64,000 nt of DNA, taken from positions 11,343 to 75,342 of the forward strand of contig JAHFJJ010000003.1 in assembly GCA_023245895.1 (NCBI GenBank). Direction: 5' to 3'. A program made the translations under genes and the position numbers. Positions 4,661 to 61,645 of this stretch are shown piece by piece (within the stretch, counting starts at the first letter, position 1; every line of letters starts with the position of its first letter). The notes beneath the pieces are model-generated. The model worked only from the letters and a program-made list of their open reading frames with translations. It was not told the DNA's origin and did not search any database. Source of the stretch: Candidatus Doudnabacteria bacterium. Its GTDB lineage: Bacteria > Patescibacteriota > Doudnabacteria > UBA920.

Positions 4661-4902
4661 GCGTCTGATCAGCGTTATTATCCGCGAGTAATCGGCGGCT
4701 GTTACATTGCGGCATTCATACCTTCGCCGCCGTCTTTGCCATCTTCGTCGTCTGTAGCAGGGGCATCAGTTGCAGGGGCGTCGGCCGTTCCGCCGTCTGC
4801 GCCCATGCCGTCTTCGTCGTCAAAAAACATATATTTTATTTTTTAATGGTAAGCCTAAAAACTTATAAAAATTATATCAAGGGATATTTATAATGTCTAG
4901 CG

Positions 4903-4954
4903 TAGCGTGCCCATTTATGGGCGTCCTCATATCGCCGATAAATCGGCACGCTAC
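4903..4954. repeat. Family C ~52-bp structured palindromic repeat, copy 1 (outer stem gtagcgtgcc/ggcacgctac, inner hairpins gcccatttatgggc and gccgataaatcggc)
   Basis: Near-identical copies at 6151-6203 and, inverted, at 47428-47480. Confidence 0.8.
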
Positions 4955-5433
4955 ATCTTATATTTAGTAAAATAATGTCCGGCACACAGCGCAATGGCTA
5001 TTGCATCTGCCGCGTCGTCGGGTTTGGGAGGTGTTTTGAGCTTAAAAGTTTGCTGTACTACATATTGCACCTGTTTTTTTTCGGCCTTGCCATAGCCGCA
5101 AATAAAATTTTTAACTTGCAGGGGCGTGAATTCAAAAATAGGCAATTTATTTTTTTGGCAAACAAGCAGGGCTACTCCCCTGGCTTGGGACACAGTCATT
5201 ACGGTTTTTTGGTTGGTGGTTAAAAAAAGTTTTTCTACTCCCACAGCTTCGGGCTTGTATTTTTTTATCAGCTGATTAACATCTGCCGCTAAAATTTCCA
5301 AGCGTTCCGCGTCTGATAATTTTTTGTCAGTTGATATAACCCCAAAGTCAACCAGCTCCGGTTGGGTTTTTGTCTGCTTGATAATGCCGAATCCGGTTGT
5401 GGCGGTTCCGGGATCTATGCCGAGTATTATCAT
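4951..5433 (-). CDS. ruvC: Crossover junction endodeoxyribonuclease RuvC
   Basis: MIILGIDPGTATTGFGII... RNase H-fold RuvC N-terminus, ~160 aa. Confidence 0.85.
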   Translation of the reverse strand: MIILGIDPGTATTGFGIIKQTKTQPELVDFGVISTDKKLSDAERLEILAADVNQLIKKYKPEAVGVEKLFLTTNQKTVMTVSQARGVALLVCQKNKLPIFEFTPLQVKNFICGYGKAEKKQVQYVVQQTFKLKTPPKPDDAADAIAIALCAGHYFTKYKM

Positions 5434-6146: not shown

Positions 6147-6150
6147 AAGT

Positions 6151-6203
6151 GTAGCGTGCCCATTTATGGGCGTCCTTGTACCGCCGATAAATCGGCACGC
6201 TAC
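6151..6203. repeat. Family C structured palindromic repeat, copy 2
   Basis: gtagcgtgcccatttatgggcgtccttgtaccgccgataaatcggcacgctac, between yebC start and rsmI stop. Confidence 0.8.
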
Positions 6204-6211
6204 AAGAAGAC

Positions 6212-9866: not shown

Positions 9867-12347
9867 TTATATTATAGTAGCGCTGGCGACCTTATCTCCT
9901 TCATCCAACCTCATCACCCTTACGCCCTGAGTGGCTCTGCCTAATGTAGACACATTATTTAGCGGTGTGCGGATGGTTTGGCCCATTTTGGAGATTATTA
10001 CAAGGTCGTGTTCTTCGGCGTTGTTTAGGATGTACATGGCTACAATTTTGCCGGTCTTGGGGGTAACTTTTAGGGTTTTGATGCCGGAGCCGCCGCGGTT
10101 TTGGATTTTGTAGTATTGGCCTTCCGTTTTTTTGCCCAGGCCGTTTTCGGTTACCACCAAAACTTCCAGGGATTTTACATCAACTTCTTTTCTTATAATG
10201 TCCATGGAAATAATGTGGTCGTCTTTTTTAATGCGCATGCCGGTAACGCCGCTGGCGTTGCGGCCCATTGGGCGCACGTCTTTTTCGTTAAAGCGAATAG
10301 CCTGGCCGTTTTCCGTGGAAAGCATTATTTGGTCTTCTCCGGAAGAAGTTTCTACCCATTTCAATTCATCATCCCCTTTGAGGTTAATGGCAATCATACC
10401 GCTCTTGCGCACTTTGGCAAATTCTTCCCGCGCGACTTTTTTAATAAGGCCATTTTTGGTGGACATGACCAGGAATTTTCCGCCGGAGGCGGATCCGCCT
10501 CTGGCGGAGGCCATGGTTAAAATTGCTTGCGCGGTTTCATTGTTCTGGAGCTGTAGGAAGTTTACCAAGGCCTGGCCTTTGGCTGTCCTTGAGCCTTCGG
10601 GCAGTTCGTAAACTTTAGTCTGGAAGACGCGGCCTTTGTTGGTAAAGAAAAGAATGTCGTCGTGAGTGTGTGAAGATATAAGTTTGTCCACTACGTCTTC
10701 TTCTTTTAACGATTGGCCAATTATTCCTTTGCCGCCGCGGGCCTGGGCTTTGTAGGTATCGGGCGCCAGGCGTTTTACATAGCCGCTCTTGGTTACTGTA
10801 ATTATTACATTGCTTTCAGGGATTAAGTCTTCGGCGCTAAAGGAACCTATGGCGTTCTTGATTACCACAGTCCTGCGCTCGTCGCCGAATCTTTCTTTAA
10901 GGTCCAGCACCTCTTTTTTAATAATAGATAAAATCTTTTTAGCGGACTGCAAAATGCCTTCTAATTCTTCTATCAATGCTTTTTTTTCTTTCAGTTCATC
11001 GTCAATTTTTTTGCGTTCAAGGCCGGCCAAAGTCTGCAGGCGCATTTCCAAAATGGCGTCTGTCTGGATGTCGGTCAGCTTGAACTTCTTCATTAAGTTG
11101 ACCTTGGCTTCTTCCTTGGTCGGTGATTTGCGGATAATACTGATGACTTCATCAATATGGTCCAAGGCTTTCTTTAAGCCTTCCAAAATATGCGCGCGTT
11201 CTTTGGCTTTTTTAAGCTCAAAGGCTGTCCTTCTTTTTACCACAACCTGGCGGTGCTCCAGGAATTTTTCCAAAACCGTTTTTAGGTTTAAAACATGGGG
11301 CTCAATGCCCCCTACCAAGGCCAGCATGTTCAAATGGAAAGTTTCCTGCATTTGGGTGTAGGAAAAAAGCTGGTTTAAAATTTTGTTGGCCAGGCCGTCT
11401 TTTTTTATATCTACGACAATCCGCACGCCGTCTTTATCGCTTTCATCGCGCACGTCCTTAATGCCTTCTATTTTTTTCTCGCTGACCAGCAGGGCGATTT
11501 TTTCCAGCAGGGTGGCTTTGTTAACGCGGTAAGGAATTTCGTGGACTAAAATTTGGAAGGCCCCGCTCTTGGTCTCCACAATTTCAGTTTTTGCGCGCAT
11601 AACAATCCCGCCCTTGCCGGTAGCATAGGCGTTCTTTATGGCCGCGACATCGTAAATAATTCCGCCGGTGGGAAAGTCCGGTCCTTTAACAAATTCCATT
11701 AGGTCTTCGGTGGTGGCTTCGGGGTCATCAACCAGTTTTACAATCGCGTCGCAAATTTCCGTAAGGTTGTGCGGCGGAATATCTGTTGCCATGCCCACGG
11801 CAATGCCAAGTGTGCCGTTTAAAAGCAAATTAGGCACTTTGCCCGGAAAGACAATAGGTTCTTTGCGCGTGGCATCGTAGTTGTCGCGCCAGTCTACGGT
11901 TTCTTTGTCTAAATCTGTCAAAAGTTCTTCGGCTAAGGCGGACATCCTTGCTTCGGTGTACCTCATGGCCGCGGCGCCGTCGCCGTCCATAGAACCAAAG
12001 TTTCCCTGGCCGTCTATTAACGGGTAGCGCATGGCGAATTCCTGGGCCATGTGCACCATGGCGTCGTAAACCGAAGCGTCGCCATGCGGGTGGTATTTAC
12101 CCAAGACATCACCGACTACAGCCGCGGATTTGCGGAATTTAACGCTATGGCGCAGCCCCAGTTCGTGCATAACGTAAAGGATGCGGCGGTGCACGGGCTT
12201 AAGGCCGTCGCGTACATCGGGAAGGGCGCGGGAAACAATTACGCTCATGGCGTAATCCAAATACGACTCCTGCATTTCTGTTTGGATGTCGCGCTGTTTT
12301 ATTTCTCCTATGTCGGTTGATAGTTCTGCTTTGGAATCTTTGGGCAT
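9867..12347 (-). CDS. gyrA: DNA gyrase subunit A
   Basis: 826 aa. [27 protein letters not shown]-terminal signature, C-terminal beta-pinwheel repeats. Confidence 0.9.
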
Positions 12348-14082: not shown

Positions 14083-14398
14083 ATATAAAACTGCTATAAT
14101 ATTTGGGCTTATTTGAATAAGTGCTAAAGCCCGCCGGAGGCGGGTCCGCCTCTGGCGGAAAATAATAATTATTAATCCCAAATAAGCCTTTGAAACAGCA
14201 CTTTTTAACAATTAACCAATGCAATACGTATCTTAAATTTGTTCAACGATTTTAAGTCGTTGATTTTTTATTTTCACCCTCCCCTAACCCCTCCCATCAA
14301 GGGAGGGGAAGACTGCAGACTGCAGTAGTTCCTTCCCCTTGATGGGGAAGGCTAGGAAGGGGCGAATGATCGTAGTTGGTTAGAGAAAGAAAATTAAT

Positions 14399-15634
14399 AT
14401 GACAGAAGAAGTAAAACAAGCAGTTATTCCCGCCGGAGCGGCCAGCGCTACGACAATGACAGATTTGGTCAATAGCGGCGTGGAAATCCGCGTGCTTAAA
14501 CCAGGCGACATGGTAGAAGGCGCGCTTATTAGCGTAGGCAAGAACGAAGTTTACGTTGACTTGGAAGGCTATGGCGTGGGCGTTGTTCGCGGCCGCGAGT
14601 TGTATGACGACGAAGCAACTTTGTCCGCTTTAAAACCCGGCGACAAAATTTTTGTTTCCGTGGTTGAAGGCGAAAACAAAGAAGGTATTGTCGAATTGTC
14701 CTTAAGACAAGCCGGGCAGGAAAGAGTTTGGCAGACCTTAAAGGAAAAGTTGGACAGCAAGGAAATTGTCCGCACCAAAATTTTGGAAGCCAACAAAGGC
14801 GGCCTTATGGTAGAGATAAACAACGTAATGGGTTTCTTGCCCGTATCCCAGTTGTCTTTGGAGCACTATCCCCGCGTGGAAGACGGCGACAAGAACCGCA
14901 TTTTGGGCGTTTTGCAGTCTTATGTTGGCCAGTCGTTCGATGTGCAAATTATTACAGCCGACTCCACCGAGGAAAAACTGATTGTTTCCGAAAAAGCCGT
15001 TTTTGAAAAAGAAATGGAAAACAAGCTCGGCTCGCTTAAAATTGGCCAGGTTGTGGAAGGTACAATTACCGGTGTGGTAGACTTTGGCGCCTTTGTTAAA
15101 TTCGGTGAAATGGAAGGCTTGGTCCACATTAGCGAACTTGCCTGGCAGAGGATTGAAAACCCCAAGGACATTGTGAAAGTCGGCCAGAAAGTTACGGCCA
15201 AAGTTATTTCCATAGACAAAGGCCGCGTATCTTTATCCATTAAACAATTACAGGAAGACCCATGGCTGGAAGCGGTTAAGAAATACCAAATTGGCCAGGT
15301 GGTTAAGGGCAAGGTAGGGAAAATTATGCCTTTTGGCGTATTTGTGGAATTGGACAAAGACATCCAGGGCCTGGCCCACATAATGGAGCTTTCGCACGAA
15401 GCGGTTAAGAACGCGGAAGACTTTGTTAAACCGGGCGAGGAAAAAGAATTTAAGATTATTTCCATTGAACCGGCCGAGCACCGTTTAGGCCTTTCTTTGA
15501 AAGCTTTAACCGAAGCGCCTAAGAAGGCGAAAGAAGAAAAAGCTTCTGTCTCCGTTGAAGTTTCTGCGGATAAGGAAGAAGTCAAAGAATCCGCCGACGC
15601 TAAACCCATGGCGGACAAGGAAGCGGCAACATAA
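14399..15634 (+). CDS. rpsA: 30S ribosomal protein S1
   Basis: 411 aa with four S1 (OB-fold) repeats, acidic/lysine-rich C-terminal tail. Confidence 0.8.
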   Translation: MTEEVKQAVIPAGAASATTMTDLVNSGVEIRVLKPGDMVEGALISVGKNEVYVDLEGYGVGVVRGRELYDDEATLSALKPGDKIFVSVVEGENKEGIVELSLRQAGQERVWQTLKEKLDSKEIVRTKILEANKGGLMVEINNVMGFLPVSQLSLEHYPRVEDGDKNRILGVLQSYVGQSFDVQIITADSTEEKLIVSEKAVFEKEMENKLGSLKIGQVVEGTITGVVDFGAFVKFGEMEGLVHISELAWQRIENPKDIVKVGQKVTAKVISIDKGRVSLSIKQLQEDPWLEAVKKYQIGQVVKGKVGKIMPFGVFVELDKDIQGLAHIMELSHEAVKNAEDFVKPGEEKEFKIISIEPAEHRLGLSLKALTEAPKKAKEEKASVSVEVSADKEEVKESADAKPMADKEAAT

Positions 15635-22526: not shown

Positions 22527-22560
22527 AACCCCCTCCCGGGAAACGGGAGAGGGTTTTTAA
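22527..22560 (-). terminator. Bidirectional hairpin terminator
   Basis: aaaaccccctcccgggaaacgggagagggttttt. Confidence 0.55.
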
Positions 22561-28488: not shown

Positions 28489-28520
28489 AATGTACCTCAC
28501 TATTTCACGGCCGTGAAATA

Positions 28521-29396
28521 GTGAGGTTGTTGAATGGTATGATAATCGATAAATACAATCAGCGAGTTCAAAATTCTCATTCCCTGCTATGCGTGGGGCT
28601 GGATGCGGATTTTGAAAAAATCCCGTCATCTTTTAAAGAAAAGGAATTCCCGCAGTTTGAGTTTAACAAATGGATTATTGACCAGACGGCGGAATTTGCC
28701 GCGGCCTTTAAGCCCAACTCGGCTTTTTATGAAGGGCAGGGCGACCAAGGCATTAAAGAGCTGAAGATGACAATGGAGCACCTTCAGCAAAAACACCCTG
28801 ACATTTTTACCATTTTAGACGCCAAGCGCGCGGACATTGGCAACACCAACAACGGCTATGTGGCTTCAATCTTTGACTGGCTGGGTTTTGACGCAGTTAC
28901 CCTGCATCCTTATTTGGGCAAAGAGGCTTTAAAGCCGTTTTTGGACAGGAAAGATAAAATATCCATCATCTTATGTAGGACTTCTAATCCTGGAGCGGGA
29001 GAATTTCAAGACTTAAGCATTTTACCCCCTCTCCCCCTGGCCTTCGGCTCTGAAGCTCAGGCTCGAAGAGGAGAGGGCCGGGGTGAGGGTCAAAAGCTTT
29101 CGCTAGTAGTTGCTGAAAAAGTTTCCAAGGAATGGAACACAAATAATAATTGCATGTTAGTAGTCGGCGCGACTTATCCGGAAGAAATGCAGGCCATAAG
29201 GGTCATTGCCGGCGATATGACTTTTTTGGTGCCCGGTATTGGCGCGCAGGGCGGCGATGTTGAAGCCGCGGTAAGGGCCGGCATTAACTCGCAAAAAATG
29301 GGGATGATAATTAACTCGTCACGTGGGATTATTTTTGCGGAAAATCCCGCGGAAGAAGCCAAGAAGTTAAGGGATGAAATTAATAAATACAGGTAG
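28521..29396 (+). CDS. pyrF: Orotidine-5'-phosphate decarboxylase (type 2), carrying an in-frame 66-bp repeat insertion
   Basis: LLCVGLDAD...DAKRADIGNT motifs of type-2 OMP decarboxylase. Residues PLPLAFGSEAQARRGEGRGEGQ are encoded by the family A repeat at 29025-29090. Confidence 0.7.
   Translation: MRLLNGMIIDKYNQRVQNSHSLLCVGLDADFEKIPSSFKEKEFPQFEFNKWIIDQTAEFAAAFKPNSAFYEGQGDQGIKELKMTMEHLQQKHPDIFTILDAKRADIGNTNNGYVASIFDWLGFDAVTLHPYLGKEALKPFLDRKDKISIILCRTSNPGAGEFQDLSILPPLPLAFGSEAQARRGEGRGEGQKLSLVVAEKVSKEWNTNNNCMLVVGATYPEEMQAIRVIAGDMTFLVPGIGAQGGDVEAAVRAGINSQKMGMIINSSRGIIFAENPAEEAKKLRDEINKYR
29025..29090. repeat. Family A GC-rich palindromic repeat (ccccctctccc ... ggagagggccggggtgagggt) inside pyrF, in frame
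   Basis: Same termini as the copy at 33284-33318 (inside rbfA) and a related copy at 33494-33590. 66 bp = 22 codons. Confidence 0.75.
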
Positions 29397-29520
29397 TAAT
29401 CGCGAATATACAAATTTACAGTAATATACGAAGCTAAAAGTCGTAATCTATGCTAAATTTTTTAACGCGTTACTGGTCACGGTTTTGTATATTAATTTAA
29501 GATTCGTATATTCGCGATTA
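29395..29520. repeat. Inverted repeat pair (gtaatcgcgaatatacaaat ... attcgtatattcgcgattac) bracketing the pyrF-pyrD intergenic spacer
   Basis: ~19-bp arms with one mismatch, ~85 bp apart. Confidence 0.5.
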
Positions 29521-29522
29521 CT

Positions 29523-30587
29523 ATGTATAAACTAATCCGCCCACTATTATTCGGCATTTCAAAAGACCCTGAAACAGTGCATAATTTGGCACTGTCTTTT
29601 TTAAGGCTGGGAGGAGTTTTTCCTATACCATCAGCCATTAAGTTTTTTACAAAAGTTGATGATGAAATTTTGAAACAAAAAGTATTTGGTTTGGAGTTTA
29701 AAAATCCTGTTGGCCTGGCCGCCGGGTTTGAAAAAGACGGTAAGGGTTTGCCGGGTTTGGAAGCTTTGGGTTTTGGGTTTGTAGAATTAGGAGGCTATAC
29801 TAAATTGCCTCAGCCGGGCAACCCCCGCCAAAGGATTTTTCGTTTGGCCAAAGATTTTGGTTTAATAAACAGGATGGGTTTCCCGAATTTTGGGGCTGAT
29901 GAGGCGGCTAAGAATCTATCTAAAGTAAAAAACCTAAGTATGCCTTTAGGCATAAATTTGGCTAAATCTAAAATTACCCCGAATGAACACGCCGTAGAGG
30001 ATTATTTATACTCTTTTTCCAAACTGTATGATTATGCGGACTATTTTGTTATTAACGTCAGTTCCCCAAACACTCCGGGCTTGCGGAAGCTGCAGAGTAA
30101 AGAATTTTTAACCGGAATTATTTCCGCGGTAGTTGGTTATAGGGACAGGCAAACTGTAAAGAAGCCCATTCTCATTAAAACCGTGATTGATTTTTCTTTT
30201 GCCGAGGTTGATGAGCTTTTGGGAGTTTGCGAAAACTATAACATTGCCGGAATTGTTTGTACCAATACCAGTACGAGCCGTGAAGGCTTAAAGACACAAA
30301 TTAACGAAATGGGAGGGCTGTCCGGAATGCCGGTCAAGCAAAAGGCAACAGAACTAATTAGATACATCCATAAGGCCAACCCGAAACTTGTTATTATTGG
30401 TTTGGGCGGGATTTTTACGGTAGAAGATGCTTACGAGAAAATAAAAGCCGGAGCGTCGCTAGTCCAAATTTTTACGGGTTTTATTTACGAAGGGCCGTTT
30501 GTGGTGAAAAAAATTAACCAGGGCTTGGCCAGGCTTTTAAAAAGGGACGGGTTTAAAAATATTAGCGAGGCTGTTGGCAAAGAATAG
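29523..30587 (+). CDS. pyrD: Dihydroorotate dehydrogenase (quinone), class 2
   Basis: N-terminal membrane-association helix, NPVGLAAGFDK motif, GGI..GFI region; 354 aa. Confidence 0.75.
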   Translation: MYKLIRPLLFGISKDPETVHNLALSFLRLGGVFPIPSAIKFFTKVDDEILKQKVFGLEFKNPVGLAAGFEKDGKGLPGLEALGFGFVELGGYTKLPQPGNPRQRIFRLAKDFGLINRMGFPNFGADEAAKNLSKVKNLSMPLGINLAKSKITPNEHAVEDYLYSFSKLYDYADYFVINVSSPNTPGLRKLQSKEFLTGIISAVVGYRDRQTVKKPILIKTVIDFSFAEVDELLGVCENYNIAGIVCTNTSTSREGLKTQINEMGGLSGMPVKQKATELIRYIHKANPKLVIIGLGGIFTVEDAYEKIKAGASLVQIFTGFIYEGPFVVKKINQGLARLLKRDGFKNISEAVGKE

Positions 30588-30593
30588 TCCTAA

Positions 30594-30630
30594 CAAGGGG
30601 AATCCTTGCGTAGCGCAAGGATTCCCCTTG
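30594..30630. repeat. Family D 37-bp perfect hairpin (caaggggaatccttgcg-tagc-gcaaggattccccttg), copy 1; also acts as the pyrD terminator
   Basis: Identical stem at 52725-52761. Confidence 0.75.
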
Positions 30631-30680
30631 TTTTTGGTACTAAGCTGTTATATAATTGATAGGCAAATTTAATATGTTAA

Positions 30681-31932: not shown

Positions 31933-31957
31933 TATTAATTTCGTATTTAGCAGAAGA

Positions 31958-31982
31958 GATCCCTCGGCTGCACTCGGGATGG
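31958..31982. repeat. Family B repeat fragment (gatccctcggctgcactcgggatgg)
   Basis: Same sequence as the right terminus of the 32965-33060 element. Confidence 0.5.
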
Positions 31983-32957: not shown

Positions 32958-32964
32958 AAAAAGT

Positions 32965-33060
32965 GTGTCATTCCGAGCGAGTGCATCCGAGAGAGGAATC
33001 TCTTACATCCGATAATCCACCAGTGTTAAGGGATCCCTCGGCTGCACTCGGGATGACACA
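32965..33060. repeat. Family B MITE-like element with terminal inverted repeats gtgtcattccgagcgagtgcatccgag ... ctcggctgcactcgggatgacac, filling the rbfA-nrnA intergenic region
   Basis: Related copies at 60007-60112, 60632-60706 (inside a CDS) and 61575-61645. Confidence 0.75.
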
Positions 33061-33067
33061 TAGAAGG

Positions 33068-33502
33068 TTACTCTTCTTCATGTATTTCCCTAATCAGCTC
33101 ATCTATATGCTGTACATACCTTGGCGAGACGTCTAAATGGAAAGAAATGCGCGGAATTATTTTGGTGTGGAAGTGTTTGTTAACTTCGCCTTGGATGTCG
33201 TAAATATTTTTGGCCAAAAAGTCCATAATTTTTTTGTCCAAAGATGGGTTAGCCAGAGGTTTTTTATCAACCGAGGATTTAACCCCCTCTCCCTCTGGGA
33301 GAGGGCCGGGGTGAGGGTTTACAGCATGGAAAATAGAAATCCAAATTTTCGCCCACTTCATGTCTTTGGACGTTTCCACTTTAGTAATAGTTACCAGCGC
33401 GTCAAAGTCCTCTAAAAATTCCAGTAAAACCGGCCCCAGTTCATGCTGGATAAGCGAGTTAACTTTGGCTATGCGGTTGGTGTCTTTTTTAACTTGTTTC
33501 AT
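33068..33502 (-). CDS. rbfA: Ribosome-binding factor A, carrying an in-frame repeat-derived insertion
   Basis: KQVKKDTNRIAKVNSLIQHELGPVLL matches the RbfA N-terminal KH-like region. Residues PHPGPLPEGEGV are encoded by the family A repeat at 33284-33318. The preferred start is the ATG at 33500-33502. The longer ORF to 33541 reads into the repeat. Confidence 0.6.
   Translation of the reverse strand: MKQVKKDTNRIAKVNSLIQHELGPVLLEFLEDFDALVTITKVETSKDMKWAKIWISIFHAVNPHPGPLPEGEGVKSSVDKKPLANPSLDKKIMDFLAKNIYDIQGEVNKHFHTKIIPRISFHLDVSPRYVQHIDELIREIHEEE
33284..33318. repeat. Family A GC-rich palindromic repeat inside rbfA
   Basis: ccccctctccctctgggagagggccggggtgagggt. Confidence 0.7.
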
Positions 33503-33590
33503 TTGGTTTCCCTCTCCCTCCTTGTCCGCCATAGTCCGCATGAGGCGGACGACGGCGGATGGGAGAGGGATTAAGGGTGAGGGTTAAGAG
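33494..33590. repeat. Composite palindromic element (family A-like arms ccctctccctcc / gggagaggg around nested gtccgcc...ggcggac hairpins), immediately upstream of rbfA and at the left edge of the GC-rich island
   Basis: Read directly. Arms complementary. Confidence 0.6.
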
Positions 33591-33725: not shown

Positions 33726-35132
33726 CTACAGCTTGGCCAGACGGTCGAGCAGGGGCTTGGCGTCCTTTCCAAAAACCTCTCTTATCCGAGCCTCGAATTG
33801 AGGCCTGAATGTGCTGCCGCTGGTGCGGGCGAGGTTTGACCGGAGGCTTGCGGCAAGATGCTTATTGTAGGCGCCGAAATCATCTTTGAGCATCTTGTCC
33901 CACACATTTTTAGGGAATTTGCCCCCGTTCTCTTTCTTAGTTTCTAAAGCCTTGATTTTCCATTCGATCTGTTCACGTTTGGAAAGGGCGTCCCAACTTT
34001 GTTTGGGTTTAGAGTTCCGTCCGCCTCGTCGGGGGGCTCGCGTTGGCTCGTGTGGTGTTGTAGGGGCCTGCGGGGAGGCAGGTGCCTCCACCACCATAAT
34101 TTTACCCCGCCGCATCAATATATCGGCGATTTCTTGGAGCGTTGTCCCGTCGCCGGTTGAGTTTTGTGCAGCCGCGAGCAGGGCTTCGAATTCCTCCAGC
34201 GCTTCTCCTCCAACCGCTGTAGCAATAGTCTGGAGCTTGTCGAACTTTAACGTGGTCATGGTCTGGCGTACCTCAGGAATTGGATGTGTGAAGACCGAGA
34301 TTACTTCGTCTTCCTTCACCCACCACAGGTTGCTGTTTACCCACTGCTCCAGCAGTGAGCGGATGTTTGCTTGCGTGAATTCTCGACCGTCGCATGCGAA
34401 GTGGAAAAGGTAAGTTCGCATCCGGGCAGGCCGTCTGGCGTTCATGAAGCGCGATACATAAACGTATCGCTCAATTCTGTCGGGAAACAAAATGTTACCG
34501 CCTTGCTGGATCATTGCTTGCAGCAATAGGACAAACAAACCAAATTCCCTTTTGGCTCCCTTGATGGGATCGAAGTGCTGCTTAAAAAATGTTGGCAAGT
34601 GGTCGGTTTTCGCTTTGGGCAGGGATTTTTGCTGGGCAATGAGCTTCTGGAAAAAAACTTCAGCCTCATCTGCGTTCAGCATTTCTTCCAAGGCCAGCTT
34701 AATTTTTCCGTGTTGCTTAATGGACTTGTTTTCCCGCGCGTCGTGTACGGTTATAGCAAGACAGCGTGCGCTGTTTTTGGCCGAAATCAGTTGCAAGGTG
34801 TTTTGGATTTCCGTAATCCTTGTTTCCGCCGTGCCGCAAAAATCCAAGTGGAAAGCATCTACGTAGGCATCTTTGCCGTGGACCTGTCTTAACCTGGACG
34901 GGAATTGCTCAAGGTTGGGGCAAAACCGGTATTGAAACCTACGGATTAAGTCATTGCCAAGGTCGTTGTCCCATTCAATAAGAAAACCCTGCTTTTCCGG
35001 AACGTTGTGCCTAAGCCAAATTTCGGCTTCAAAGCCTTTGCCGCCCAAGGTGGCCAGCTTAGCCTCAACGAGAGGCTTGAAACCGGCAATCATCTGCAAG
35101 AACATTTCAATAATTCTCTCTTTTGGTTGCAT
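33726..35132 (-). CDS. Island protein 1: large hypothetical protein (468 aa) with Pro/Arg/Lys-rich low-complexity C-terminal segment
   Basis: Long ORF with GC-rich codon usage unlike the flanking genes. No domain recognised by eye. Confidence 0.5.
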   Translation of the reverse strand: MQPKERIIEMFLQMIAGFKPLVEAKLATLGGKGFEAEIWLRHNVPEKQGFLIEWDNDLGNDLIRRFQYRFCPNLEQFPSRLRQVHGKDAYVDAFHLDFCGTAETRITEIQNTLQLISAKNSARCLAITVHDARENKSIKQHGKIKLALEEMLNADEAEVFFQKLIAQQKSLPKAKTDHLPTFFKQHFDPIKGAKREFGLFVLLLQAMIQQGGNILFPDRIERYVYVSRFMNARRPARMRTYLFHFACDGREFTQANIRSLLEQWVNSNLWWVKEDEVISVFTHPIPEVRQTMTTLKFDKLQTIATAVGGEALEEFEALLAAAQNSTGDGTTLQEIADILMRRGKIMVVEAPASPQAPTTPHEPTRAPRRGGRNSKPKQSWDALSKREQIEWKIKALETKKENGGKFPKNVWDKMLKDDFGAYNKHLAASLRSNLARTSGSTFRPQFEARIREVFGKDAKPLLDRLAKL

Positions 35133-47405: not shown

Positions 47406-47427
47406 GCCGATGATCTAACTTGAACCT

Positions 47428-47480
47428 GTAGCGTGCCGATTTATCGGTGACTTAAGGACGCCCATAAATGGGCACGCTAC
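47428..47480. repeat. Family C structured palindromic repeat, copy 3 (inverted orientation)
   Basis: gtagcgtgccgatttatcggtgacttaaggacgcccataaatgggcacgctac. Confidence 0.8.
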
Positions 47481-47559
47481 GCAGATGCCCTTCCCATAAG
47501 GAAGGGTTTTGTCATATATGGTATAAAATTCTCTAAATTGTTGACCAAAAGCTGTTTAT

Positions 47560-52719: not shown

Positions 52720-52724
52720 CCATA

Positions 52725-52761
52725 CAAGGGGAATCCTTGCGCAGCGCAAGGATTCCCCTTG
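52725..52761. repeat. Family D 37-bp perfect hairpin, copy 2, between permease and ATPase genes
   Basis: caaggggaatccttgcgcagcgcaaggattccccttg. Confidence 0.75.
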
Positions 52762-52773
52762 TAGATAAAGTAT

Positions 52774-61476: not shown

Positions 61477-61574
61477 CGAGGTGCTTATTTGACAAAATGA
61501 TTAAATTATCATTTAAATAATGAAAAACTACTTAACAGCGTCTTTATTTAGACGCAAGTTCAAAAACCCTTAGT

Positions 61575-61645
61575 GTGTCATCCCGGCCGAGTGCATCCGA
61601 GAGTCGGGATCCAGTATATAAGCCAAGTTCTGGATCCCGGATATT
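61575..61645. repeat. Family B-related repeat (gtgtcatcccggccgagtgcatccgagagtcgggatccag + ggatccag...ctggatcc hairpin)
   Basis: Shares the gtgtcat...gagtgcatccgagag core with 32965-33060. Confidence 0.6.

Follow-up and report, generated by a model that had tools for sequence, protein, structure and literature searches.

A three-arm BoxC/TM_ECO-type repeat residing in frame in pyrF and rbfA of a Patescibacterium

What is a GC-rich, hairpin-forming repeat doing inside the reading frames of two housekeeping genes of a small bacterial genome, and at which level, DNA, RNA or protein, is it kept there? The preliminary description of this DNA had proposed that a palindromic repeat, called family A, is inserted in frame in pyrF and in rbfA, and that a third, composite copy lies upstream of rbfA. 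In the window, by which we mean the whole 64-kb stretch of DNA that was analysed, an exact 21-mer, GGAGAGGGCCGGGGTGAGGGT, occurs twice, both times on the + strand, at 29070-29090 within pyrF and at 33298-33318 within rbfA. The same 21-mer has matches in none of 100 dinucleotide-preserving shuffles of the window. It belongs to a longer element, of which there are only three copies in the 64 kb. These copies, their host genes and two related variants are the following.

14276-14308, - strand: intergenic TM-like variant, CCCCTCCC-TTGAT-GGGAGGGG-TTA-GGGGAGGG, with a third arm that is the exact mirror of the second
14331-14363, + strand: TM-like variant, CCTTCCCC-TTGAT-GGGGAAGG-CTA-GGAAGGGG
28539-29396, + strand: pyrF, type 2 orotidine-5'-phosphate decarboxylase, 285 aa (Pfam PF00215, OMPdecase)
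29027-29090, + strand: pyrF copy of the repeat, in frame; CCCTCTCCC, 33-nt loop, AGGAGAGGG, CCG, GGGTGAGGG, T
29027-29035: pyrimidine arm of the pyrF copy, CCCTCTCCC
29036-29068: loop 1 of the pyrF copy, 33 nt, with a nested hairpin inside
29069-29077: purine arm 1 of the pyrF copy, AGGAGAGGG, 8/9
29078-29080: loop 2 of the pyrF copy, CCG
29081-29089: purine arm 2 of the pyrF copy, GGGTGAGGG
33068-33502, - strand: rbfA, ribosome-binding factor A, 144 aa (Pfam PF02033, RBFA)
33285-33318, + strand: rbfA copy, in frame; CCCTCTCCC-TCT-GGGAGAGGG-CCG-GGGTGAGGG-T, a canonical BoxC/TM type B motif
33510-33584, + strand: third, composite copy in the rbfA 5' leader; CCCTCTCCC, 42-nt loop, GGGAGAGGG, ATTAA, GGGTGAGGG, T

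The repeat is more than a palindrome. Its architecture comprises three arms, namely a pyrimidine arm (CCCTCTCCC), a complementary purine arm that follows a loop (GGGAGAGGG) and, after CCG, a second purine arm (GGGTGAGGG) that is the mirror image of the first purine arm. The term "palindromic" is thus right for the hairpin arms and incomplete for the element as a whole. The GC contents of the copies (0.69 in pyrF, 0.74 in rbfA and 0.64 in the leader) stand far above those of pyrF and rbfA without the repeat (0.45 and 0.39; whole window 0.45), and DNA hairpins are predicted for the motif copies by ViennaRNA, which models hairpins only, in keeping with the GC-rich, hairpin-forming repeat that had been proposed. 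The composite copy upstream of rbfA is likewise present, although the span originally assigned to it (33494-33590) was slightly wide; its 42-nt loop (33519-33560) holds a double nested hairpin. The two TM-like variants form an inverted pair upstream of an S1-like gene that starts at 14399. A further candidate at 22529-22560 was rejected as a family member, being a plain hairpin with a T run and without a third arm, i.e. an ordinary terminator. An Rfam scan of the whole window at gathering thresholds returned tRNAs only and no family matching the repeat, and permissive Rfam scans of the three copies gave nothing beyond generic miRNA-like hairpin noise.

The repeat family is real, but it is not private to this genome, as the label "family A" had implied. 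By its sequence, the repeat is the already described BoxC / PIT / TM_ECO type B / HPG2 motif of ~34-38 nt. TM_ECO has been defined as CCCTCNCCC N3-6 GGGNGAGGG N3 GGGNGAGGG, with 3610 copies across 262 proteobacterial genomes, and has been treated as one and the same with BoxC, a repeat described earlier, and with the PIT element of Maher (Holder et al., 2015, PMC4666352, where the preceding BoxC/PIT work by Bergler, Bachellier and Hoyne/Maher is cited). The rbfA copy (33285-33317) fits the published pattern exactly and differs from the K-12 TM_ECO no. 1 (PMC4666352, Table 1) in only 2 of 34 positions (32/34 identical). By blastn, it is found in 4584 of 5426 complete E. coli genomes, at a median of 7 places per genome; the best E. 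coli match is 34/35, with no annotated feature beneath it. The other two copies fall outside the pattern, the pyrF copy because of a loop 1 of 33 nt and one mismatch in arm 2, the third copy because of a loop 1 of 42 nt and a loop 2 of 5 nt. Both can be read as TM_ECO derivatives with nested insertions. HPG2 (Kaplan et al., 2016, PMC5100583) is the same 21-mer, for which a G-quadruplex-hairpin-duplex switch was proposed. The G-rich 21-mer GGGAGAGGGCCGGGGTGAGGG is identical in the rbfA copy, which has four G-tracts of at least three G (compare dGGGAGAGGGCCGGGGTGAGGG), and in the pyrF copy the first G-tract is only GG, owing to AGGAGAGGG.

Three folds are available to the motif as single-stranded DNA, namely a hairpin, an intrastrand purine-motif triplex and a G-quadruplex. 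CD and NMR, applied to the E. coli sequences, show that the TM_ECO single strand adopts the purine-motif intrastrand triplex, but only when isolated, since the triplex went undetected in duplex DNA and by in vivo DMS footprinting (PMC4666352). The same study reported that TM_ECO is always intergenic in E. coli K-12, that its presence or absence varies among E. coli strains, that its adjoining genes share no common function, that local sequence instability is associated with it, and that it lacks association with mobile genetic elements (transposon, phage or plasmid). The copies described here resemble those of E. coli in the three-arm sequence and spacing (rbfA copy), in the inverted pair at 14276-14363, which is similar to the inverted type A plus type B pairs of E. 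coli, and in the clustering of sequence changes around the motif. They differ in that two of the three copies in the window lie inside ORFs, in a 45%-GC Patescibacterium, and in that two of the three have loops of 33-42 nt that hold nested hairpins. Intergenic location is, however, a reported property of TM_ECO and stands outside the motif definition. The HPG2 copies of Kaplan et al. (PMC5100583) are also intergenic, between E. coli operons, with regulation proposed, and the mirror symmetry seen in third arms from CPR bacteria is not needed for a quadruplex.

The in-frame residence of the repeat in pyrF and rbfA is borne out by the Pfam matches of both hosts and by conserved protein that flanks the repeat on both sides in both reading frames. 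The encoded peptides are also as claimed in the preliminary description, PPLPLAFGSEAQARRGEGRGEGQ in PyrF and PHPGPLPEGEGV in RbfA. The motif is sense in pyrF and antisense in rbfA, where it is read on the opposite strand as NPHPGPLPEGEGV, and the resulting peptides differ. Inspection of the sequence finds a stop codon in just one of the six frames of the motif (TGA in GGG-TGA-GGG); the other five encode strings rich in Pro, Leu, Ser, Gly, Glu and Arg. The net length changes caused by the in-frame copies are multiples of three. PyrF of the window is 100% identical to a database protein (P0001), and RbfA is 100% identical to a database protein of 144 aa (P0121) over 99% of the query; both database proteins are encoded on one 83.5-kb NCBI contig. 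The nearest relatives of the two proteins, where named, are Patescibacteria (Paceibacterota, Doudnabacteria and Nomurabacteria).

Alignments with homologues place both inserts at sites of variable length. PDB homologues align with PyrF in two blocks (query 4-160 and 189-284 against chain 5-148 and 156-251), between which the window PyrF is ~22 residues longer, and weak PDB alignments of RbfA set query residues 60-102 opposite ~18 chain residues. Among the 120 closest PyrF orthologues, 61 are free of an insert and have a basal 7-8 residues between an invariant QDL and a nearly invariant WQ, 14 carry an insert of the PLPLGEG type, and 45 carry other inserts, with some orthologues having unrelated hairpin-encoded peptides at the very same site. 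For RbfA, 27 of 120 orthologues have no insert and retain a basal four-residue turn (FNGD), and the remaining ones carry 11-60 residues (15 of the NPHP...SPKGRGE type), so that the loop ranges from 4 to 60 residues. The orthologue alignments, which had been suggested as a check, thus show extra residues that are absent from the PDB homologues and from 61 PyrF and 27 RbfA orthologues, without conservation in unrelated taxa. In an AlphaFold model of the window PyrF (pLDDT 88.9, pTM 0.87), the insert forms a loop with a pLDDT of 50-60 between strand 141-147 and helix 187-199, and is predicted to be disordered. As judged from the alignments, each coding copy is an insertion that keeps the frame and lies in a loop of variable length. 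We found no evidence that the repeat serves the PyrF or RbfA proteins, and it presumably has no role at the protein level.

How old are these insertions? Contigs that encode close relatives of PyrF and RbfA (L201-L209) were compared at both sites. The pyrF motif is present at the same codons in five of them (L201, L202, L203, L206 and L207), with CCA or TCA as loop 2 and, in L203, a 41-nt insertion with a nested hairpin in this loop; L204 and L205 have the variant CCCTCCCC-tagat-GGGGAGGG-taa-GGGAGGGG at the pyrF site. The rbfA motif is found at the same place in L202, L208 and L209, with a hairpin nested in loop 2 in L202, hairpins nested in both loops in L208, and a second whole motif nested in loop 1 in L209. 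Because orthologous copies occupy the same codons in related CPR contigs, the insertions are old, and not recent jumps, and it was an ancestor of this Patescibacteria lineage whose permissive PyrF and RbfA loops received the copies. In one contig, the pyrF copy is found together with an insert-free RbfA (119 aa), which implies separate histories for the two sites. L208 had been considered as a lineage with an empty pyrF site and a filled rbfA site, but was rejected as such, since its pyrF is of a different subtype. In a neighbour-joining tree of PyrF, the motif-bearing sequences are loosely clustered and interleaved with empty-site sequences, a pattern that fits one gain with losses as well as several gains.

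The nested hairpins in these copies show that further small hairpins insert preferentially into the loops of the motif, which fits with the instability that E. coli genomes are reported to have near it. Within 0.93 Mb of CPR DNA collected around pyrF, both the 33-nt insert of the pyrF copy and the 36-nt core (33524-33559) of the leader loop are unique, and resemblance to a small family is confined to the innermost GTCCGC-loop-GCGGAC hairpin.

Residence within genes makes it possible to ask what is conserved. At the four-fold degenerate third positions of six pyrF orthologues, pairwise identity is 70/75 in the arms, as against 383/975 elsewhere in the gene. This test comprises five codon columns in six sequences, and its outcome would be mimicked if a hot spot had received the element several times independently. 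Identity of the arms at four-fold degenerate sites speaks for a constraint at the DNA level, and with opposite reading strands and different peptides in pyrF and rbfA, neither a peptide nor one RNA strand is the common denominator. What is conserved is the DNA sequence, and not a peptide or a single RNA strand.

A second line of evidence comes from the third arm. The 0.93 Mb of CPR DNA contain 46 pyrimidine/purine hairpins with asymmetric arms, and in 18 of these, a mirror-image third arm lies 2-6 nt downstream of the second (T being allowed for A); with random flanks, 0.29 would be expected, and the maximum in 200 trials was 3. About nine different arm sequences obey this mirror rule, two of them in the window (14276-14363). 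Templated copying has no way of generating a mirror repeat, and such a repeat is what an antiparallel purine-motif triplex needs (G*G:C, A*A:T and T*A:T under the purine-motif rule). The mirror rule is the best available argument, if an indirect one, that the three-arm fold, or whatever recognises it, matters. In vivo, the motif would fold as a triplex or a hairpin; a triplex should be weaker where loops are 33-42 nt long and in the pyrF copy, with its A in arm 2.

The motif is not confined to Patescibacteria and Proteobacteria. An exact 20-mer of it occurs in at least 120 loci of a species-representative genome collection, with hosts in the Proteobacteria, Verrucomicrobia, Planctomycetes, Acidobacteria, Chloroflexi, Bacteroidetes, Deinococcus and Nitrospirales among the matches listed; among the same matches, almost every 20-mer is preceded by CCCTCTCCC and a loop of 3-7 nt. 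Residence in coding sequence recurs as well. In a NAD-dependent DNA ligase gene (ligA) of Planctomycetota, an in-frame copy splits the adenylation domain, further in-frame copies occur in a CobN chelatase gene (cobN) and in the gene of an RHS-repeat protein, and copies in the genes of a xanthine dehydrogenase and an IcmF-like mutase fall into inter-domain linkers. At least 120 viral contigs of IMG/VR likewise contain the 20-mer and with it the motif in full; we treat these matches as a lead, since this collection includes prophages with host flanks. Occurrence in viral contigs differs from the 2015 statement (PMC4666352) of no association with phages.

Signatures of mobility were sought in 186 complete type B copies. 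None has a target-site duplication, direct repeats of 2-5 nt in the flanks being no commoner than after shuffling, and none shows complementarity of the flanks or a terminal repeat. The 5' flank of the 186 copies reads T-T-C-T/C, with C at position -2 in 96%, and may be a part of the element or a target sequence. A Pfam scan of nine ORFs of the window found no mobilising enzyme.

The copy in the rbfA leader deserves separate consideration. It ends 8 nt upstream of the rbfA ATG (33502, - strand), which puts its GGGAGAGGG arm on the mRNA strand at -16 to -8 from the ATG, where it is likely to act as the Shine-Dalgarno sequence. In the predicted RNA fold (-44.3 kcal/mol, z -6.5; as DNA -24.6 kcal/mol, z -5.8), this arm pairs with CCCUCUCCC across the nested hairpins, and the pyrF copy also has a stable predicted RNA fold (-40.8 kcal/mol). 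Sequestration of the ribosome binding site by the leader copy is possible on the basis of this fold. In relatives, the rbfA leaders have different hairpins or none.

Together, these data suggest the following model, which we consider probable: a structural BoxC/TM repeat that acts at the level of DNA is tolerated in permissive protein loops, and is held there by a constraint related to its fold or by homogenisation between copies. The three-arm element would have persisted in the PyrF and RbfA loops for three reasons, namely that five of its six frames are free of stop codons, that its length keeps the frame, and that a peptide rich in Pro, Leu, Gly and Glu can be accommodated as a disordered loop. 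The structure-related constraint, or else the homogenisation, would operate on transiently single-stranded DNA, and the loops of the motif take up further small hairpins. The repeat may also benefit its host.

Such a benefit is at the centre of another explanation, according to which the motif is kept because it provides the host with a site for pausing of replication or transcription, for recombination or for a nucleoid protein, by way of a triplex or G-quadruplex. Conservation of the arms at synonymous sites and across phyla would fit, as would the mirror covariation of the third arm, which is beyond any templated copying process, and the retention of the motif despite nested insertions, which are themselves hairpins and so keep the arms adjacent. 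However, PIT had no promoter or terminator activity and caused no polymerase block in vivo in those of Maher's studies that are summarised in PMC4666352, neighbouring genes have no common function (PMC4666352), and presence of the motif varies among close relatives as well as among E. coli strains, so that we regard a host benefit of this kind as unlikely to be the explanation. We think it quite unlikely that the motif is an active non-autonomous mobile element, similar to MITEs or REPs, that was recently copied among pyrF, rbfA and the rbfA leader of this genome. The two coding copies do share all 21 nt, including the unconstrained CCG of loop 2, where pyrF orthologues have CCA or TCA, the motif is dispersed over phyla and viral contigs, and its 5' flank resembles a target or end sequence. 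Yet the orthologous copies at the same codons predate this genome, shared copies have diverged flanks, the 186 copies lack target-site duplications and flank complementarity, the window has only three copies, and the E. coli motif has not been connected with any transposase (PMC4666352).

The strong RNA folds raise the question of whether mRNA hairpins pause ribosomes in pyrF and rbfA, with the leader copy sequestering the Shine-Dalgarno sequence of rbfA and so regulating its translation. The fold energies and the pairing of the GGGAGAGGG arm with CCCUCUCCC speak for such action, which is nevertheless improbable, as transcription runs through the motif in one orientation in pyrF and in the other in rbfA, the third arm has no role in a simple hairpin, relatives have other hairpins or none in their rbfA leaders, no Rfam family matches, and purine-motif triplexes do not form in RNA (literature as cited in PMC4666352). 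That the extra residues constitute a functional, lineage-specific protein loop under selection at the amino acid level is very improbable: although PLPLGEGxGEG-like peptides recur in 14 of 120 PyrF orthologues, the same DNA encodes different peptides in the two genes, the four-fold degenerate sites are frozen, which selection on a peptide would not require, half of the PyrF orthologues have no insert, others have unrelated hairpin-encoded peptides there, and predictions make the loop disordered. Faulty assembly or contaminating enterobacterial DNA might be suspected from the 97% identity to E. coli copies and from a GC content far from that of the host, but is practically negligible given that the copies are embedded in frame within CPR genes and that the same arrangement appears in independent assemblies (NCBI, ENA, JGI and Logan).

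The preferred reading, a structural DNA repeat tolerated in permissive loops, invites comparison with other short repeats. Rickettsia palindromic elements (RPE) are reportedly ~100-150 bp long and restricted to Rickettsia. They are similar in behaviour only, as palindromic repeats in frame in housekeeping genes of small genomes that are tolerated as an extra surface peptide; they are not known to be related in sequence to the motif of the window, which has the sequence of BoxC, ~34 nt and a third, mirror-image arm and is common to many phyla. REPs are extragenic by definition. With REP/BIME sequences, the motif has in common that these are short, GC-rich hairpin repeats, often in inverted pairs and without target-site duplication. 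The GTAG or CGTC tetranucleotide found at the foot of REP hairpins was not seen in the flanks of the 186 copies, and no RAYT has been reported with TM_ECO (PMC4666352). Bacterial MITEs, such as those of Coxiella (PMC5896051), and Correia elements are alike in being non-autonomous repeats that can sit in coding sequence. Among the 186 copies, we found none of the features that characterise MITEs. These are a size of 50-500 bp, IS-derived terminal inverted repeats and a duplicated target site.

Known since the 1990s, BoxC/PIT/TM_ECO is without an accepted function and was described as strictly intergenic. The element itself is not new; its coding context and its host phylum are. In the searchable literature, we found no relevant report of in-frame palindromes in CPR/Patescibacteria or of coding copies of BoxC, and in the papers searched, neither the motif in Patescibacteria, nor its in-frame residence in housekeeping genes, nor the recurrent nesting of hairpins in its loops was found. 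A further-reaching reading, which we offer as doubtful but worth stating, is that BoxC/TM is a ~38-nt element that occurs across phyla and is possibly carried by phages, that its fold is under purifying selection in vivo, and that it colonises ORFs, where its loops serve as landing pads for hairpins and so build the hypervariable loops of PyrF and RbfA. If this were true, BoxC/TM would be a bacteria-wide counterpart of the Rickettsia palindromic elements, and its third arm, by covarying as a mirror, would provide the first evidence from evolution that intrastrand triplexes in DNA are of consequence to living cells.

The in-frame copies amount to a natural experiment, because synonymous sites can separate a constraint on DNA from a constraint on a peptide, which intergenic copies cannot do. 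The first such measurement is small and points to a constraint on the DNA that includes the third arm, an arm for which base pairing offers no template. In host range, the motif now extends to Patescibacteria, many other phyla and viral contigs. For annotation, inserts of this kind, rich in Pro, Leu, Gly and Glu, are to be read as translated repeat DNA and not as protein features. Small hairpins have hot spots of insertion both in the loops of the motif and in the protein loops where it resides, and this may be a source of protein length variation in small genomes.

In different lineages, one and the same loop of PyrF (loci L121-L200), whose basal form is xVDGKPLWQ and whose codon site corresponds to 29016-29098 of the window, holds at least eight small inserts that encode hairpins and are unrelated to one another. 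Examples are:

gtgcaggcc-acc-ggcctgc
cttgtcgacct-cgc-aggtcgacaag
gttaaacac-tcg-gtgttgaac
the SDVGRPNSRRPTSE type

The RbfA loop behaves in the same way. Either hairpins insert preferentially at the PyrF site, making it a hot spot, or they displace one another there. In some of the PyrF-loop inserts, native codons form the left arm, and this sequence arrangement suggests a fold-back or template-switch origin for them. Shortly after the residues encoded by the BoxC/TM copy (a three-arm motif), the window PyrF reads KLSLVVAEK (29091-29110, residues about 185-190), whereas orthologues have K(T/P)LWQIVAEK. The protein is one residue shorter here, and the nearly invariant Trp and Gln have given way to other residues (TGG to TCG, CAA to CTA); all remaining invariant residues are retained.

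Other palindromes surround these genes. A perfect 34-nt palindrome (28494-28527) lies between pyrE and pyrF, and the pyrF-pyrD spacer is wholly enclosed by a 22-nt inverted repeat (29394-29523), the arms of which contain the pyrF stop and adjoin the pyrD start. The gap from the DHH/DHHA1 gene to the rbfA stop (32962-33060) is occupied by a dispersed palindromic family, GTGTCATTCCGAGCGAGTGCATCCGAGAG ... GGGATCCCTCGGCTGCACTCGGGATGACAC, with partial copies at 61572-61603 and 31954-31981. The 468-aa ORF adjoining the rbfA leader (33726-35132, minus strand) had no Pfam match at E <= 0.01.

BoxC/TM copies also lie in frame within genes of other phyla, the identities of which were confirmed by Pfam:

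L027 3173-6157, minus strand, LigA gene, copy in the adenylation domain, Planctomycetota
L108 2253-5741, plus strand, CobN gene
L068 1-4047, plus strand, RHS-repeat protein gene
L113 2801-6091, minus strand, fused xanthine dehydrogenase, copy in the inter-domain linker
L003 2926-6423, plus strand, IcmF-like mutase, copy in the inter-domain linker

For the last two, it is possible that BoxC/TM contributed to the fusion of adjacent genes. The exact 20-mer, together with the complete three-arm motif, is moreover present in at least 120 IMG/VR viral contigs (loci L210-L329, median GC 0.62), where the copies could sit in phage DNA proper or in the host flanks of prophages; some of these loci hold two to four motif copies in inverted pairs.

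Variants of the motif were found as well. An inverted pair of the triplex type, with arms CCCCTCCC/GGGAGGGG/GGGGAGGG and CCTTCCCC/GGGGAAGG/GGAAGGGG, is located in the intergenic region 5' of the S1-like ribosomal protein gene (14276-14363), with a predicted DNA fold of -26.8 kcal/mol (z -4.9). Another variant, CCCCCTCTT-aaaat-AAGAGGGGG-aca-GGGGGTGAT, is an in-frame part of the coding sequence for an alpha/beta hydrolase in a related CPR contig (L204 4043-4077), where it encodes the peptide PPLKIRGGQGVI.

The window contains further palindromic families:

4899-4955, 6148-6204 and 47425-47481, 57-nt element with arms GTAGCGTGCC...GGCACGCTAC
30593-30631 and 52724-52762, 39-nt near-perfect palindrome ACAAGGGGAATCCTTGCG.CGCAAGGATTCCCCTTGT, one copy directly 3' of the pyrD stop
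10480-10508, 29-nt GC-rich palindrome CCGCCGGAGGCGGATCCGCCTCTGGCGGA, inside gyrA (DNA gyrase subunit A; 9867-12347, minus strand)
14131-14159, second copy of CCGCCGGAGGCGGATCCGCCTCTGGCGGA, 97% identical, intergenic

The 29-nt palindrome is distinct from BoxC/TM, and its gyrA copy is in frame and encodes 11 residues. It thus seems that the genome as a whole tends to carry palindromic repeats in frame within its housekeeping genes.
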